Shown here piece by piece: positions 42,784-49,045 of a stretch of 64,000 nt of DNA. Origin of the DNA: Escherichia virus TH47; sequence record MT446416.1. One strand, 5' to 3'. The notes beneath the pieces are model-generated. The model was not told where the DNA came from. It ran no database searches and saw only the letters and a list, made by a program, of their open reading frames with translations. Each line of letters starts with the position of its first letter. The first letter of the stretch is position 1. Made by a program: the position numbers and the translations under genes.

Positions 42784-43161
42784 TTAGCCAACTTTTTCAC
42801 AATTACTTAGTAAGTGTGTGATTACATCGGCAGTGAATGGTCCTAGAACTAAAACTTCTTCTCCATTACCGAAGATACTCAATGGTACAGATTGTTGTCC
42901 TGCTAGATATTCGATTTGTTCTAATTCGAAAATGTCATCAGCAGCATAAACAACCTGTTCCATTTCATTATCTTTAATCCATGACTGCCAATGTTCTTTA
43001 AACTGCTTCGCTTCGTATTCCAGCACATAGTTAGGTGATTCTGGATTGTACTGATGTAGCATTGTCATACCAGCCATGACCAGTTCTTTTGGTGATGGAG
43101 TAGAATCTTTCAGTACTACGATAGCTTGGATAGTTTTAACTTTAACGTTTTGAGCAGCCAT
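42784..43161 (-). CDS. hypothetical protein
   Basis: 125-aa ORF, AGAGGT RBS. Confidence 0.5.
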   Translation of the reverse strand: MAAQNVKVKTIQAIVVLKDSTPSPKELVMAGMTMLHQYNPESPNYVLEYEAKQFKEHWQSWIKDNEMEQVVYAADDIFELEQIEYLAGQQSVPLSIFGNGEEVLVLGPFTADVITHLLSNCEKVG

Positions 43162-43173
43162 TAGATACCTCTA

Positions 43174-43482
43174 TTATAGAATGATTTTGTTATCAGGAAC
43201 AATCAGTGCTGGTTTTTCTTCGATAGCCTTGATTGCTTCAACATAAGCTTCAACTAGTGCAGGGTTTGCATCACTGATGCTGATGATGTTGGATTTATAA
43301 AAAATAACGCCTTTTTCAGAACTAATGAATTCTAGGTAATCACGTAGAATGATTTCACCTTGTTCGTCAGTACCTAGCTGTGCTGGGTAGTTAACTACTA
43401 CTGCTTCAGGTGCATCATTTTGTAGAATTGCTAGTACTGGGCCAACGCTGTTGATGTTTAGTAGTTTAACGGTCATAGTCAT
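43174..43482 (-). CDS. hypothetical protein
   Basis: ORF with AAGGA RBS; start at first ATG (track begins at TTG 43491). Confidence 0.45.
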   Translation of the reverse strand: MTMTVKLLNINSVGPVLAILQNDAPEAVVVNYPAQLGTDEQGEIILRDYLEFISSEKGVIFYKSNIISISDANPALVEAYVEAIKAIEEKPALIVPDNKIIL

Positions 43483-43501
43483 TTTTGTCAAGTCCTTTTG
43501 T

Positions 43502-43978
43502 TTATTTTATAATGTATAAGTGTTTTTCTGCATTAACCAGTCTGTGGTCAATGATTTCTTTGATAACGTTCCAGTTACCACCGCCTAAATCGGCTCCAAT
43601 TTTCGGGAAGTGTACATGAACAGTGCGTTCAACGTTACATAAGTAATTGAGTTGTTTGAAAACATCATCGATTGCATCATAACTCACATACTTAGAACCG
43701 TCATTACCATAGTACTTTTGGGTAATGCAGTTTGCGATAAGCAAATCATCACTTATAGAAGAATATGAAATTTGTCCTGTTCTTAGAAATCCCATTTCCT
43801 TTTCATATGCTTTATAATCATCATATGCCATCGGGTAACGATTTCTTAGTTCTTTTGCAAAACCCGAACCCATCTTACCCTGTGCATTACAACCATGAGC
43901 GATTATATGCAACGCGGTTTGATCATCAGTAACAGTGTTGAACAATTCAAACAAATTACCTAGGTGTTCATGTATCAT
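43502..43978 (-). CDS. macrodomain protein, TARG1/OARD1-like (ADP-ribose processing)
   Basis: motifs GNLF, LHIIAHGCNAQGKMGSGFA and FPKIGADLGGGNW align with TARG1 LAHCISEDCRMGAGIA and MPRIGCGLDRLQW; GGAGAA RBS. Confidence 0.75.
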   Translation of the reverse strand: MIHEHLGNLFELFNTVTDDQTALHIIAHGCNAQGKMGSGFAKELRNRYPMAYDDYKAYEKEMGFLRTGQISYSSISDDLLIANCITQKYYGNDGSKYVSYDAIDDVFKQLNYLCNVERTVHVHFPKIGADLGGGNWNVIKEIIDHRLVNAEKHLYIIK

Positions 43979-44029
43979 TATATTCTCCGAAAAGAAAGGA
44001 CTCTGTAATCAGAGTCCTTAATTTATATT

Positions 44030-44272
44030 TTATTCTTCTTCACCGAATCGAATTTTTTTCAATTCTTTTCGTTGTTTGCGAGCAATGGTACTTTTGTGAA
44101 GTCTATTACCACGTTTTGTGTCTTTCGTGATGTACCATGAATCTTCTGGTGCATTATAATCACAATAACCATCTTCTGTAATCGTCCCTAAGAAAGCAGA
44201 CTTTTTAGGAATGGATGTTTGAGCTTTAGCAGCGAATTGGCCTTTTGCTAATTGTTCACGAAAACTGAGCAT
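44030..44272 (-). CDS. hypothetical basic protein
   Basis: start at ATG with GGGAGA RBS (track begins at TTG 44287). Confidence 0.45.
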   Translation of the reverse strand: MLSFREQLAKGQFAAKAQTSIPKKSAFLGTITEDGYCDYNAPEDSWYITKDTKRGNRLHKSTIARKQRKELKKIRFGEEE

Positions 44273-44317
44273 AATAGTATCTCCCAAATTGTTACGAAGA
44301 ACTTGTGTTCTTCATTA

Positions 44318-44560
44318 TTATTTAGGGTTGCTCGAAACCTCTACTGAAGCGATGAATGCCAAAATATCATCTTTACTGAAAGCTTCAATAATATAAGCAA
44401 CCGCTTTATCGTACTGTTCTTTCTTAGTAGTGTATTCTTTCATTTTGTGAATTTTACGTTGTGCTTTAACTTTTGCAGCTTCCATATCAGGCATTTTAAA
44501 TTCAACACCCAATGTGTCAGCTAAATGTTTTGCACGAGATGATACTTTATCAATATTCAT
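44318..44560 (-). CDS. hypothetical protein
   Basis: 80-aa ORF coupled to glutaredoxin gene. Confidence 0.45.
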   Translation of the reverse strand: MNIDKVSSRAKHLADTLGVEFKMPDMEAAKVKAQRKIHKMKEYTTKKEQYDKAVAYIIEAFSKDDILAFIASVEVSSNPK

Positions 44561-44808
44561 TAATTCCAGCGACCTTCTTTAAGACCTTCAACGAAACCAG
44601 TACAGCCACCTGGAACGTAAACATCGTTTACGAAAATTTGTGGAACCTGTCGTACTGGCTCGCCACATAGTTCAGATAGTTTAGCACCATCAATACCAGC
44701 GGTAACAATATCGATAAACTCCATATCAAATTTGTTATTTTCACATACTGCTTTTGCAGTGTCGCAGAATTTACAACCAGTAGTGCGACCATAAATTTTA
44801 ACTTTCAT
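44560..44808 (-). CDS. glutaredoxin/thioredoxin-like protein
   Basis: 82 aa with N-terminal CKFC redox motif and Grx-like length; AAGGGAAA RBS. Confidence 0.65.
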   Translation of the reverse strand: MKVKIYGRTTGCKFCDTAKAVCENNKFDMEFIDIVTAGIDGAKLSELCGEPVRQVPQIFVNDVYVPGGCTGFVEGLKEGRWN

Positions 44809-45208
44809 TTCTTTTCCCTTTATTTCGTTGAAACATCGTAACAGCCTTTATTATACTGTTACACATTCGTTCAGTCAAATACTTTTGACAATCTAGTACA
44901 TCAATGTACATGAACTTATCCAATTCTGGGTGACTTCTACCATATCGGTTTGTGTAAGTACTCTTACACTCTAACTCTTCTGGTATAGGCTTATCTTTGG
45001 CTGTATAGAAAAATAAAACTAAACGTTTCCCCTTTCTATACGATACATCACCAAGAAACAGAAGATCATCTTCATCGATTTCATATCCTGTCTCTTCGTA
45101 GCATTCGCGAACAGCAGCCTCTTTAAATGTTTCTGTACCTTCAGTTTTACCTTTAGGTAAGTCCCAGTGATTCTGTCCGTGTTGTATGCCCGATAAGTAT
45201 CTGACCAT
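44798..45208 (-). CDS. Nudix hydrolase (second copy)
   Basis: Nudix box GKTEGTETFKEAAVRECYEETG; short N-terminus, start uncertain (GTG/ATG at 45211/45208); extended -10 TGGTATAAT just upstream. Confidence 0.65.
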   Translation of the reverse strand: MVRYLSGIQHGQNHWDLPKGKTEGTETFKEAAVRECYEETGYEIDEDDLLFLGDVSYRKGKRLVLFFYTAKDKPIPEELECKSTYTNRYGRSHPELDKFMYIDVLDCQKYLTERMCNSIIKAVTMFQRNKGKRNES

Positions 45209-45317
45209 CACGATAAAATATTATACCACAACTATAACGCATAATCTTATCTCTTTATCATCAAGTGATGTTCAGATACTAGTAATTATATCAGAAGATG
45301 TTAACTTGTCCCAGCTT

Positions 45318-46433
45318 TTAGAACATTTGCTTGATTGCTTCAATACGCAATTCAGCAACAAAATCACGAATCTCTGATGTTTGGAGTTCACCATCTTTCA
45401 CTAACTGCTGAATATCAGGTAATTCAACATCAGTATAACGATCATAAACTTTAATAATCAAATCTTCAAGATCAGAATCAATTTCTTTGTTCAAAATGAA
45501 GTTTTCCAGTACTTTGTAAAGGAAATCTTCGCCACCATTGTTTTTGATATTCATCTCCAGTAAGATTTGTCCCATTTCAACGGGGGTCTTCTTACGGAAG
45601 GTTTTAATATCTTCACGGAAACGCTTGATGTAATTACTAAACTTCACGTACTTAACTGGAACCTTAATAGAACCATTAAGTACTGAATCATTATTTACTT
45701 CTTCATTTTCAAGAAGTACTGTCCATAAGAAATATGGTTTATATTCTTCTGTACAATTTGCAGCGATAGCATCAATTAATTCCAGACGTTTCTTGGTAAC
45801 TGGAACTGTAGTAAATGCCTTTTCGTAATAACCAAATTGTACCAGAGTTTTGATAAACTTGGAAGGGTTTTCTTCAGAAAGTGCTTTTTCGAATTCAACA
45901 AAAACACGATCTGGAACTAGATGGTCTAGTTCACCAGTACTAACCATATCTTTACACATTGTCATAGTATCATCATGGATTGTAAAGTCTGAGTAACGTG
46001 TAGCGAAACGTGCCAAACGTAGTACACGCAATGGATCTTCTTTAAAGTGTTCTGATACATGACGAAGTACTTTGTTCTTGATATCAGCTTTCCCGCCATA
46101 AGGGTCGATGTGAATCTGGAGTACTGGATCATACGCTATGCTATTTACCGTAATATCCCTTCTGTATAGATCTTGCTCTAGTGTCACGCCTTTAGTATTC
46201 ACTTCGAAGCCACCGTAGCCAGTACCAGTTTTACGTTCGGTACGTGCCAATGCGTGCTCATTACCCTCTGGACTTAGATACACTGGAAAATCCTTACCTA
46301 CTTGCTTATAGCCAATACTTTGTAAGTACTTAATATCGGATTCGGTAGCACCGACAATGACATAATCTTTGTCTTTTGCACGAATACCCATTAAACGGTC
46401 CCTCACATAGCCGCCCACCAAATACTTTTTCAT
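45318..46433 (-). CDS. tRNA nucleotidyltransferase (CCA-adding enzyme) / poly(A) polymerase head-domain protein
   Basis: N-terminal GGYVRDRLMG, DKDY and RRDITVNSIAYD motifs; GAGGAAGG RBS. Confidence 0.8.
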   Translation of the reverse strand: MKKYLVGGYVRDRLMGIRAKDKDYVIVGATESDIKYLQSIGYKQVGKDFPVYLSPEGNEHALARTERKTGTGYGGFEVNTKGVTLEQDLYRRDITVNSIAYDPVLQIHIDPYGGKADIKNKVLRHVSEHFKEDPLRVLRLARFATRYSDFTIHDDTMTMCKDMVSTGELDHLVPDRVFVEFEKALSEENPSKFIKTLVQFGYYEKAFTTVPVTKKRLELIDAIAANCTEEYKPYFLWTVLLENEEVNNDSVLNGSIKVPVKYVKFSNYIKRFREDIKTFRKKTPVEMGQILLEMNIKNNGGEDFLYKVLENFILNKEIDSDLEDLIIKVYDRYTDVELPDIQQLVKDGELQTSEIRDFVAELRIEAIKQMF

Positions 46434-47497
46434 AATATACCTTCCTCTGAAAGATGTTTTTTTAATACAGTTAAGTGGTCTTCATAATATGTTACACGTA
46501 TTAATTTAATAAAATTCTTTTCACAATATTGTGTCTTTATAGTATCGTTATCCTTGATGTTTTTCAATTTATCTTCTCCACCCCAATGAGGTGATTTCTC
46601 AAAATGTTGTTTACCATCATACTCAATACAAATATCATAATCAACCAAATAAAAATCAAATCTTAATAACATTTTATTTTTACAGTCACTAAATGTTTGT
46701 TCTTTATTAAATTTTATACCATTTTCAATTAAAAAACGTGTTATTTCTCTACTAGCTCTGGATTCAGTATGTTCAGATGAGCATATTGGGCAACCTTGTT
46801 TTTTATTTTTTGCTATATGAAAATTTGGAATGATATAAAAAGAATTATTATGTTTTTTACAAATTATTTCAACATGAGTGCTACTATTAATGTAGATGAC
46901 TTTTGAATAGTCATATACATTACCATGAATTTCTTTTGCTCGTTCAACAAATTCAGCGGTGGTGAATGCGTGTGCTAATCTGGTTTTTTCAAATCGACAA
47001 ATAGAGCAACCCTGACCACTTTGTATATTACTAATTTCCATTTCATCAACGTGACCACATTTTAAGCATTTATAAGTTAATTTGGTTCTTTTATCTTTAA
47101 TTATTGGTTGTTCTAAAAGTAATTCACATTCACCAGTCATTAGACTTTTTGAAGTCTTATAAAGATAATATCTATAATTTGCATTGTCATATTTCCCAAT
47201 GATATATTTCATACCTTTCGTTTTTATATCATTTATATTTCTTTTTGTATATATAATACCATCTTTTTCAACAACAGTTCTTGTAAAACTAGATTTCCAT
47301 TCATCACTTGATGTTATAGCAAATCCTAAAATATTATATCCTTTTTCTATTATTTCTTCAAAATGTTCTTTAGGTGTTTTTGATGTTTTAATTAATTTTG
47401 GTGATAAATCTTCGGGACGCATCCATTCGAAACGCATACCTAATTCTTCATGGAAATATACCTTCTCGTTATTTTCATTAAAATAAAATTTATACAT
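46430..47497 (-). CDS. Vsr/DUF559-type endonuclease-like protein with zinc ribbon (homing-endonuclease candidate)
   Basis: CLKCGH...CSIC and CPIC Cys pairs; C-terminal LLRFDFYLVDYDICIEYDGKQHFE resembles DUF559 endonuclease motif. Confidence 0.5.
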   Translation of the reverse strand: MYKFYFNENNEKVYFHEELGMRFEWMRPEDLSPKLIKTSKTPKEHFEEIIEKGYNILGFAITSSDEWKSSFTRTVVEKDGIIYTKRNINDIKTKGMKYIIGKYDNANYRYYLYKTSKSLMTGECELLLEQPIIKDKRTKLTYKCLKCGHVDEMEISNIQSGQGCSICRFEKTRLAHAFTTAEFVERAKEIHGNVYDYSKVIYINSSTHVEIICKKHNNSFYIIPNFHIAKNKKQGCPICSSEHTESRASREITRFLIENGIKFNKEQTFSDCKNKMLLRFDFYLVDYDICIEYDGKQHFEKSPHWGGEDKLKNIKDNDTIKTQYCEKNFIKLIRVTYYEDHLTVLKKHLSEEGIL

Positions 47498-47508
47498 TTT
47501 CTAATCTT

Positions 47509-47640: not shown

Positions 47641-48063
47641 TTAAATCAATCTGTCACGTAGACGGTCGTAATATTTTGCATGTATATCTAGTATACACTG
47701 AAATGATGGATAGTCAATACTAAATGTATCATCAATGAACATGTACTGATCAAGTGTTTCAGGACCATTATCAACAACTGGCAATGAACCTTCTTTTTTT
47801 GACAGTGTGTTCCACATCAACTCACATGTAGTATCGAAAATTGCGTATGTTAATTCTATCTTACTTTTTCTAAGTGTAATTAATAATTCATCATTCTCTT
47901 CTAACGAGTTTCGTATTTTTATACGTACAGTACCCTGAAATTTATTAGTGGTTAGTACTCTATATTGATTATACGAAATTATACCTCGTATTTCAGTACT
48001 GATTTCTTGTTCAGAAAAGAACCTTACTGTACTGTGGAAATTTGGTATTTTACGAATGTCCAT
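47641..48063 (-). CDS. hypothetical protein, paralogue A
   Basis: shares C-terminal motif YMFIDDTFSIDY with adjacent gene. Confidence 0.5.
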   Translation of the reverse strand: MDIRKIPNFHSTVRFFSEQEISTEIRGIISYNQYRVLTTNKFQGTVRIKIRNSLEENDELLITLRKSKIELTYAIFDTTCELMWNTLSKKEGSLPVVDNGPETLDQYMFIDDTFSIDYPSFQCILDIHAKYYDRLRDRLI

Positions 48064-48457
48064 TCAAATTCCTTTCGTATATATGGTATACGTTCATTAT
48101 ACTATTATATAGATCAAAGTCAAATCCAAATGTGTCATCAATGAACTGATATTGTAGATATTCTTCATATGAAGCATCAATTGGTAATGAGCCATTACGC
48201 ACATCATCTGATTTAAAATCGTCAATGTATCTTAATGTTATGTCTTCATCAACCGTGATATCTATCATCAACGTATCGTCACTGTACCATAGGTTGTGTA
48301 TACGGATGTAAAGTCTCTTAGCACGATTAAACCAAGATACATTGGTATAGCGATGAAGTTTGTCTAAATTGAAGAAAAAACCTGACTCGTTCTTACTTAT
48401 GTTTTTAATATGTTCTGCAATCGGTTCAATTATATGAACAATGTTGAATGTTTTCAT
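48050..48457 (-). CDS. hypothetical protein, paralogue B
   Basis: C-terminal motif YQFIDDTFGFDF; start at ATG coupled to upstream stop (TTATGA). Confidence 0.5.
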   Translation of the reverse strand: MKTFNIVHIIEPIAEHIKNISKNESGFFFNLDKLHRYTNVSWFNRAKRLYIRIHNLWYSDDTLMIDITVDEDITLRYIDDFKSDDVRNGSLPIDASYEEYLQYQFIDDTFGFDFDLYNSIMNVYHIYERNLNGHS

Positions 48458-48639
48458 AAACAAATCTCATAACGGTTTGTGTTTGGATTGTAGCAATAGG
48501 TATCATTAATTTTAACACCAGGTTTAAGTGTGATGGTTGTACCTACTTCAGTACTGGGTTCCGCATCACAGTAAATCATCACACCAACTCCTGCGAGTAA
48601 GGCTATGATACATACAATTACACATATGGTATATTCCAT
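48454..48639 (-). CDS. small single-pass membrane protein
   Basis: 61 aa with hydrophobic helix CVIVCIIALLAGVGVMIY; GAGGAA RBS. Confidence 0.5.
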   Translation of the reverse strand: MEYTICVIVCIIALLAGVGVMIYCDAEPSTEVGTTITLKPGVKINDTYCYNPNTNRYEICL

Positions 48640-48652
48640 TTCAATTCCTCGG

Positions 48653-49045
48653 TTATAAAAAGTAATTGTACATTTTATTGTACAATATAAAAAGGTCTTT
48701 CACATTATCATAAGTAATATTAGATACATCATGAATTAATGATAACTGAAAAAATGATGCTTCGTCTATATCTACTGGGATTATAACATCATCGTCTTCG
48801 TCCATTTTATTGGTGTAGTATTTTATGTGATCAGCATTCATCTCAATAGAGAACGCAAGGTTGGATTTTGTATAATCTTCAATTAATCCGATAAATTTAG
48901 ATTTTTCATTAATAAAAAATCCAATCCCAAAACAACGGTTATCTGAATATGGATAGTACCATCTATTAAAAACTAGGCTTTCAGGTAAATCATCATCATG
49001 TGTTGATACGAGAGATTTTACTACATCTACCCAAACATAATTCAT
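48653..49045 (-). CDS. hypothetical protein
   Basis: 130-aa ORF with GGAG RBS. Confidence 0.5.
   Translation of the reverse strand: MNYVWVDVVKSLVSTHDDDLPESLVFNRWYYPYSDNRCFGIGFFINEKSKFIGLIEDYTKSNLAFSIEMNADHIKYYTNKMDEDDDVIIPVDIDEASFFQLSLIHDVSNITYDNVKDLFILYNKMYNYFL

Follow-up and report, generated by a model that had tools for sequence, protein, structure and literature searches.

The closest described relatives of the gene studied here are gp031 of phage RaK2 and its orthologues in the Rak2-like phages (PHROG 2244; WPEC3, PBECO4, 121Q, GAP32 and Eneladusvirus), which belong to the same family of proteins of about 370 amino acids and are 57–99% identical to its product. This family is already known: it is annotated (PHROG 2244, GenBank) and has been discussed in print (RaK2 gp031, 2013), with the same proposed role, the maturation of the phage's own tRNAs. 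Because it has already been named and discussed, recognizing it once more adds little beyond a correct annotation. No experimental characterization of a phage Cca was found in the literature.

The cellular counterparts differ mainly in their C-terminal half. The head and neck of the enterobacterial Cca (PRK10885) are 53% identical to those of the phage protein, with conservation of the flexible loop and of all class II motifs, whereas the C-terminal half of the host enzyme contains an HD domain (phosphatase, 2′-nucleotidase and 2′,3′-cyclic phosphodiesterase) and that of the phage protein is a predicted helical body/tail of unrelated sequence, devoid of an HD motif. The solved CCA-adding enzymes devoid of an HD domain, from T. 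maritima (3H37, 3H38 and 5HC9) and B. stearothermophilus (1MIV), resemble the phage model over its full length (TM 0.65–0.73), but the sequence identity is 21–23%, and conservation in sequence does not extend to the residues of the tail that bind tRNA.

A further point of comparison is provided by the Seg and Mob enzymes of T4, which are free-standing homing endonucleases with co-conversion of flanking markers. The window, that is, the whole 64-kb stretch of DNA analysed in this work, likewise carries an intergenic gene that is variably present, together with a putative donor tract in the adjacent conserved gene; the predicted endonuclease is of a different family (PHROG 559 with DUF4379). The Rak2-like phages share the gene order of the window (lysozyme ... 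cca, NudE, glutaredoxin ... Tk.4/macro). The cca of the window is unlike their other copies in that its 5′ third is A4-like and an endonuclease-like gene lies directly upstream, as in phage A4.

Origin of the window and tRNA genes of its relatives

By megablast, the window comes from an Asteriusvirus, one of the PBECO4/121Q-like jumbo coliphages with genomes of 348–386 kb. In the regions that were compared, it shares about 95–97% identity with WPEC3, vB_Ec-M-J, EC.P1, fEgEco12 and others, and its 64 kb correspond to less than one fifth of such a genome. ARAGORN predicted no tRNA gene within this stretch, and the Rfam covariance models gave no match to any RNA family in it at the gathering threshold; these two independent methods agree with the first-pass annotation, which had found no tRNA there. 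The further step taken in that annotation, from the absence of tRNA genes to host tRNAs as the possible target, is not supported, since in relatives the tRNA genes lie at a distance of about 170 kb from cca. The absence most probably arises because the window covers no more than 64 kb out of some 348–386 kb. Limited to one window, it is uninformative on a jumbo-phage genome.

Six tRNA genes have been reported near 295 kb in fEgEco12 (PMC13070987). ARAGORN, run on the interval 288–302 kb of this genome, placed genes for Ser-TGA, Ser-GCT, Met, Asn and two Thr-TGT at 290.9–295.1 kb. The cca gene of fEgEco12, to which the window is about 96% identical, lies near 122 kb, about 168 kb from the tRNA cluster; WPEC3, A4 and PBECO4 show a comparable distance, and in these relatives cca is not linked to the cluster. 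The tRNA region of fEgEco12 is matched in the Asteriusvirus records among those listed, and each of the four genomes analysed (fEgEco12, WPEC3, A4 and PBECO4) has six tRNA genes. Published counts range over 6–8 tRNAs per genome, with 7–8 for sibling phages, and the relatives overall have 5–8 tRNA genes, the compared regions being about 96–97% identical. From relatives that are 95–97% identical over the compared regions, we infer that the genome of the window probably holds the same tRNA cluster.

The cca gene and its product

The positions of the features discussed are reported in table 1. The open reading frame occupies exactly 45318..46433, and its product, with the N-terminus MKKYLVGGYVRDRLMG, matches the Pfam model PF01743 (PolyA_pol head) over profile positions 2–126 of 126 (aa 4–124, E 1.7e-18); the earlier description of a phage-encoded nucleotidyltransferase with a complete head is therefore well founded. 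Its naming as a CCA-adding enzyme was also the right call, as Pfam, PHROG 2244, NCBIfam and the motifs agree. PHROG 2244 ‘tRNA nucleotidyltransferase’ spans the protein end to end (6e-115). The NCBIfam Cca models score 211–278 bits, the top one being PRK10885 (E. coli-type Cca), which matches aa 1–204 only and, at 278 bits, does not reach its equivalog cut-off of 451. The orthologue in WPEC3 (XTQ13634.1, ‘tRNA nucleotidyltransferase’) is 98.7% identical. With a dN/dS of about 0.03–0.15 within the genus (0.089 for the C-terminal part compared with A4), cca is under purifying selection along its whole length.

Table 1. Location of the features discussed. Positions preceded by L and a number are those of excerpts from the loci of other phages; all the others are positions in the window.
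Feature	Genome	Position	Strand	Remarks
cca	Window	45318..46433	minus	371 aa, stop codon included; predicted class II tRNA nucleotidyltransferase (CCA-adding enzyme)
Head (catalytic) domain, aa 4–124	Window	46062..46424	minus	Pfam PF01743
Neck domain (PolyA_pol_RNAbd), aa 149–207	Window	45813..45989	minus	Pfam PF12627 at 2e-09
Motif D, E132-D133-P134-x-R136	Window	about 46026..46040	minus	Predicted nucleotide template; just upstream of neck
C-terminal helical body/tail, aa 208–371	Window	45321..45812	minus	Predicted; without HD domain
Shine–Dalgarno-like GAGGAAGG	Window	46440..46447	minus	Located 6 nt before the ATG of cca; read from the sequence
Free-standing homing-endonuclease-like gene	Window	46430..47497	minus	355 aa; ends in a stop codon overlapping the start of cca (ATGA)
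Inserted cassette	Window	46435..47506	minus	1,072 bp compared with WPEC3
Putative co-conversion tract, cca codons about 1–110	Window	46100..46434	minus	A4-like in an otherwise WPEC3-like genome
Nudix (NudE-like) gene	Window	44798..45211		Follows cca
Glutaredoxin gene	Window	44560..44808		Follows cca
Macro-domain/Tk.4-like gene	Window	43502..43978		Further downstream of cca
Genes downstream of cca	Compared loci	L010 4660-6384; L009 4684-5366		Positions in locus excerpts
cca orthologue A4_536	A4	L001 4311-5423		Carries a multifunctional-type label
CCA-less tRNA genes	fEgEco12			Asn, Thr, Thr
CCA-less tRNA genes	WPEC3			Thr and one Ser-like gene
CCA-less tRNA genes	A4			Asn, Thr
CCA-less tRNA genes	PBECO4			Gly, Asn, Thr
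The ten CCA-less tRNA genes	Asteriusvirus	L003 5201-5273, 6988-7141; L004 6900-6991, 8978-9051; L005 6742-6815, 8059-8132; L006 3699-3771, 6790-6862, 7901-7974		Positions in tRNA-locus excerpts
CCA-less tRNA genes	Klebsiella phage Muenster (RaK2-like)			Four out of six

The catalytic motifs were examined in an alignment of 53 sequences. Motif A comprises GGxVRD and the metal-binding carboxylates DxD; its residues G7, G8, R11, D12 and D23 are invariant and D21 is conserved in at least 90% of the sequences. The same holds for R91, R92 and D93 of motif B (invariant), for D110, P111 and G114 (invariant) and D117 (at least 90%) of motif C, and for E132, D133, P134, R136, R139 and R142 in the region of motif D (invariant). 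Residues A61, L62 and R67 of the flexible loop A61-L-A-R-x-E-R-K68 are nearly invariant (at least 90%). Residues 1–201, comprising the head and the neck, are 53% identical to Salmonella Cca, and the loop between motifs A and B, ALARTERKTGTGYGGF, pairs without gaps with ALARTERKSGSGYTGF of that enzyme.

The AlphaFold2 model built from the alignment has a mean pLDDT of 93.6 and a pTM of 0.86, with values above 90 throughout the C-terminal region. It superposes over its full length on the CCA-adding enzyme 3H38 of T. maritima (TM 0.73, 389 columns) and on 1MIV of B. stearothermophilus (TM 0.65). The modelled protein thus has the four-domain head–neck–body–tail fold of class II enzymes, and the full-length superposition on CCA-adding enzymes suggests that the phage-specific C-terminal part is the body/tail domain. 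In sequence, this part is specific to the jumbo phages of the Rak2-like group, and no similarity to host Cca can be detected over the C-terminal 170 residues.

Two C-terminal segments, of 172 and 85 residues, were searched for the HD domain, and Pfam gave no PF01966 match at E ≤ 1; in the positive control, Salmonella Cca, the domain is found at 4.4e-14. The alignment agrees: the segments of bacterial Cca that contain the HD motifs are missing from the phage protein. A lone match to Bt_P21 in the C-terminus (E 0.02–0.03, below the cut-off) was dismissed as chance. The orthologue is already labelled ‘tRNA nucleotidyltransferase’ or ‘CCA tRNA nucleotidyltransferase’ in most Asteriusvirus records. 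In A4, Sharanji, phAPEC6 and slurp01, it is called ‘multifunctional CCA protein’ or ‘tRNA nucleotidyl transferase/2'3'-cyclic phosphodiesterase/2'nucleotidase/phosphatase’. Since the HD domain behind the extra activities is absent, these labels look like over-calls and should shrink to ‘CCA tRNA nucleotidyltransferase’.

Phage tRNA genes with and without an encoded CCA

The CCA status of each tRNA gene was determined from the sequence that follows the discriminator base. Two or three of the six genes are CCA-less in each of the four Asteriusvirus genomes (table 1), and the phage genes for Ser-TGA, Ser-GCT and Met encode CCA. All 10 CCA-less Asteriusvirus genes read discriminator-C-AAA, followed by A (T in the Ser-like gene of WPEC3). 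This regularity, which might be a signal for 3′ processing, is not seen in the cluster of Klebsiella phage Muenster (L008). The Cca of the RaK2-like group to which Muenster belongs is about 67% identical to that of the window.

Every tRNA gene of E. coli encodes CCA, and the bacterium can do without its own cca (Zhu & Deutscher 1987, as quoted in PMC11291079). The CCA-less genes are thus a peculiarity of the phage in this host, and with them the phage imports a class of substrates that is absent from the host genome. With two or three CCA-less genes out of six in each relative, the phage's own tRNAs need a CCA-adding activity; such a mixture of CCA-encoding and CCA-less genes is a simple rationale for a phage cca.

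The tRNA content differs between close relatives; for example, WPEC3 has a different Asn gene, which encodes CCA. Genes for HNH endonucleases lie within the tRNA clusters of WPEC3 (L004 6313-6837) and Muenster (L008 5923-6741 and 9245-9790). The variable content and the presence of these genes suggest an endonuclease-driven shuffling of tRNA genes.

Proposed role of the phage enzyme

The cca gene probably encodes a working class II CCA-adding enzyme, the main job of which would most likely be to finish the phage's own tRNAs at their 3′ ends. According to the established mechanism of class II enzymes, the head domain would hold two metal ions on the carboxylates of its DxD motif, the EDxxR motif would serve as a protein template choosing CTP, CTP and then ATP, the flexible loop would permit the switch to A, and the helical body/tail would grip the tRNA elbow so that synthesis ends after CCA. 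Host RNase BN/Z or exonucleases would trim the trailer of the phage transcripts, and the phage enzyme would then add the missing nucleotides. The phage enzyme would also restore eroded CCA ends, whichever tRNA of the infected cell they belong to. Since CCA-adding enzymes act on a tRNA irrespective of its origin, the repair of host tRNA 3′ ends is possible; nothing here points to it specifically. What stands of the first-pass reading is therefore the enzyme itself, with host tRNA repair still possible, and what falls is the deduction of a host target from a tRNA-free window. The CCA-less tRNAs of T4 are matured by the host enzyme. Given this precedent and the presence of a host Cca, the phage copy is not strictly required, and selection may maintain it for a different benefit, such as a supply of enzyme once the host has been shut off, or repair.

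The activity itself could be of another kind: the product might be a poly(A) polymerase, or a split CC-adding or A-adding enzyme. The Pfam head domain is common to all these enzymes, and the A-adding enzyme 4WC2 (TM 0.66) and the E. coli poly(A) polymerase 3AQL (TM 0.62) superpose on the model nearly as well as the CCA-adding enzymes, so that the assignment of CCA specificity, rather than CC or A, draws on sequence evidence. This evidence makes the other activities highly improbable. The Cca models of NCBIfam far outscore those of the PcnB poly(A) polymerases (TIGR01942, 91 bits for a cut-off of 305.65; PRK11623, 49.6 for 702) and the A-adding model (65.6 bits, cut-off 1440), and the head and neck share their 53% identity with a bona fide enterobacterial Cca. 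CC-adding enzymes reportedly carry a deletion in the flexible loop, a finding attributed to Neuenfeldt et al. in 2008; the loop of the phage protein is conserved and ungapped, and at full length it would confer the capacity for A addition. In a sequence search of the PDB, CC-adding chains (3WFP family, about 1e-06) rank far below CCA-adding chains (1.4e-21). The poly(A) polymerase, CC-adding and A-adding identities were rejected on the NCBIfam scores, the conservation of the loop and this ranking. Apart from CMSTMSU, which has two places, tblastn found one place per Asteriusvirus record among those listed, and thus no second tRNA nucleotidyltransferase gene that might serve as a partner.

For a CCA-adding enzyme, the main purpose could alternatively be repair or counter-defence, with cca kept for rebuilding CCA tails, on host as well as phage tRNAs, after erosion by exonucleases or after clipping or blocking by defence effectors that act on the 3′ end of the tRNA. 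This is essentially the idea of the first-pass annotation and is compatible with the maturation of the phage's own tRNAs; as the main purpose, we find it rather unlikely. CCA-adding enzymes are grouped with RNA-repair nucleotidyltransferases in a review of jumbo phages (Iyer et al. 2021, PMC7824862), and nucleases that cut tRNA CCA tails in defence do exist, e.g. Cas12a3 (PMC12851939). The Asteriusviruses, including WPEC3 and vB_Ec-M-J, encode a T4-type RnlA RNA ligase and a PseT kinase/3′-phosphatase, which implies that the genome includes a tRNA-repair strategy; in principle, PseT could provide the end-healing that is missing from an HD-less Cca. However, it is by the HD phosphohydrolase domain that the host Cca heals phosphorylated 3′ ends, and the phage protein has none. 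Neither RnlA nor PseT was found in the 64-kb window; in relatives, their genes are about 50 kb from cca and so form no module with it. Loss of the discriminator base is beyond repair by a CCA-adding enzyme. Such a loss can occur too, since the post-cleavage complex of Cas12a3 holds the ACCA tail of tRNA-Ala (PMC12851939). The premise that the phage has no tRNAs also fails in the relatives, with six tRNA genes in four Asteriusvirus genomes out of four. We know of no defence system targeting the CCA end that acts on these phages.

A more elaborate possibility, which appears improbable to us, is that the CCA-less genes with their discriminator-C-AAA trailer and the HD-less Cca form a deliberate, phage-controlled maturation circuit, in which Cca would double as a protection against immunity directed at the CCA tail (Cas12a3 and MenT-type toxins). 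RNase T is inhibited by a 3′ C. In such a circuit, the single encoded C would halt the host 3′ exonucleases and leave tRNA-NC for the phage enzyme, and the phage tRNAs would be functional only once that enzyme had been made.

A predicted endonuclease gene and the recombinant 5′ end of cca

The gene directly upstream of cca matches PHROG 559 ‘HNH endonuclease’ (1.8e-51) and PHROG 9084 ‘homing endonuclease’; in Pfam, it matches only DUF4379, a treble-clef zinc finger. Compared with WPEC3, it is an insertion of 1,072 bp, placed precisely in the spacer of 1 nt that separates a small open reading frame from the cca ATG. The cassette is absent from WPEC3 and from most of the matching Asteriusvirus records, which cover 74% of a 4-kb query. 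Among phage records, only A4 has the endonuclease at the same site, with 98.9% identity. The remaining homologues reach no more than 47% identity and lie at other loci.

The insertion is accompanied by a switch in the affinity of the flanking sequence. In a profile of 100-bp steps, the region 46100..47506 is 97–100% identical to A4 and 83–93% to WPEC3, whereas the values for the flanks nearest cca, among them 43000–46099, are about 83% with A4 and about 99% with WPEC3. The dS of cca compared with WPEC3 is 0.80 in codons 1–110 and 0.05–0.07 thereafter, and this pattern is reversed in the comparison with A4. The first 110 residues of Cca contain two amino-acid differences from WPEC3. The switch in identity and the jump in dS near codon 110 indicate that the predicted endonuclease gene was acquired from an A4-like donor together with the 5′-terminal 330 bp or so of cca. 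Judged by its sequence, the cca of the window is a recombinant allele with an almost unchanged protein. Both marks of a homing gene, a presence/absence polymorphism at one site and co-conversion of donor sequence, were found at this locus, and the predicted endonuclease gene with its putative co-conversion tract is a homing signature.

The Shine–Dalgarno-like GAGGAAGG of cca sits within the 3′ end of the endonuclease open reading frame and is the same in A4; in WPEC3, which has no insertion, the sequence upstream of cca differs from this region.

Genes around cca

A Nudix gene and a glutaredoxin gene follow cca in Asteriusvirus, RaK2 and the Yersinia phage fHe-Yen9-04. The macro-domain/Tk.4-like gene is found downstream in Asteriusvirus and RaK2, and is un-annotated in the record of fHe-Yen9-04. 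We considered a functional module made up of cca and the Nudix, glutaredoxin and macro-domain genes: the order is conserved in three genera, but the phages are collinear relatives, so that the shared order is no evidence of coupling.

The two RNA-repair genes of the Asteriusviruses are located elsewhere, with pseT at 71390-72319 in vB_Ec-M-J, about 50 kb from cca, and rnlA at 84035-85174 in PBECO4. Their products are an anticodon-loop repair pair, about 64% identical to that of RaK2.

Two adjacent, unannotated open reading frames without a Pfam match, 47641..48063 (140 aa) and 48050..48463 (137 aa), share a C-terminal stretch of 42 residues with 40% identity (E 3e-08) and the motif Q-Y-x-F-I-D-D-T-F; they are likely tandem paralogues. 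The open reading frame 48653..49045 has no detectable relation to its neighbours (E 0.35).

Scans for regulatory signals gave 42 sigma-70 promoter sites, for 31.5 ± 6.0 expected, and four terminators, for 2.0 ± 1.5 expected. A GC-containing hairpin of 10 bp (43996..44019) lies between the open reading frame 44030..44287 and the macro-domain gene. It is terminator-like on both strands, the minus-strand tail having only five T's, and is the sole such site in the tightly packed array of minus-strand genes around cca.
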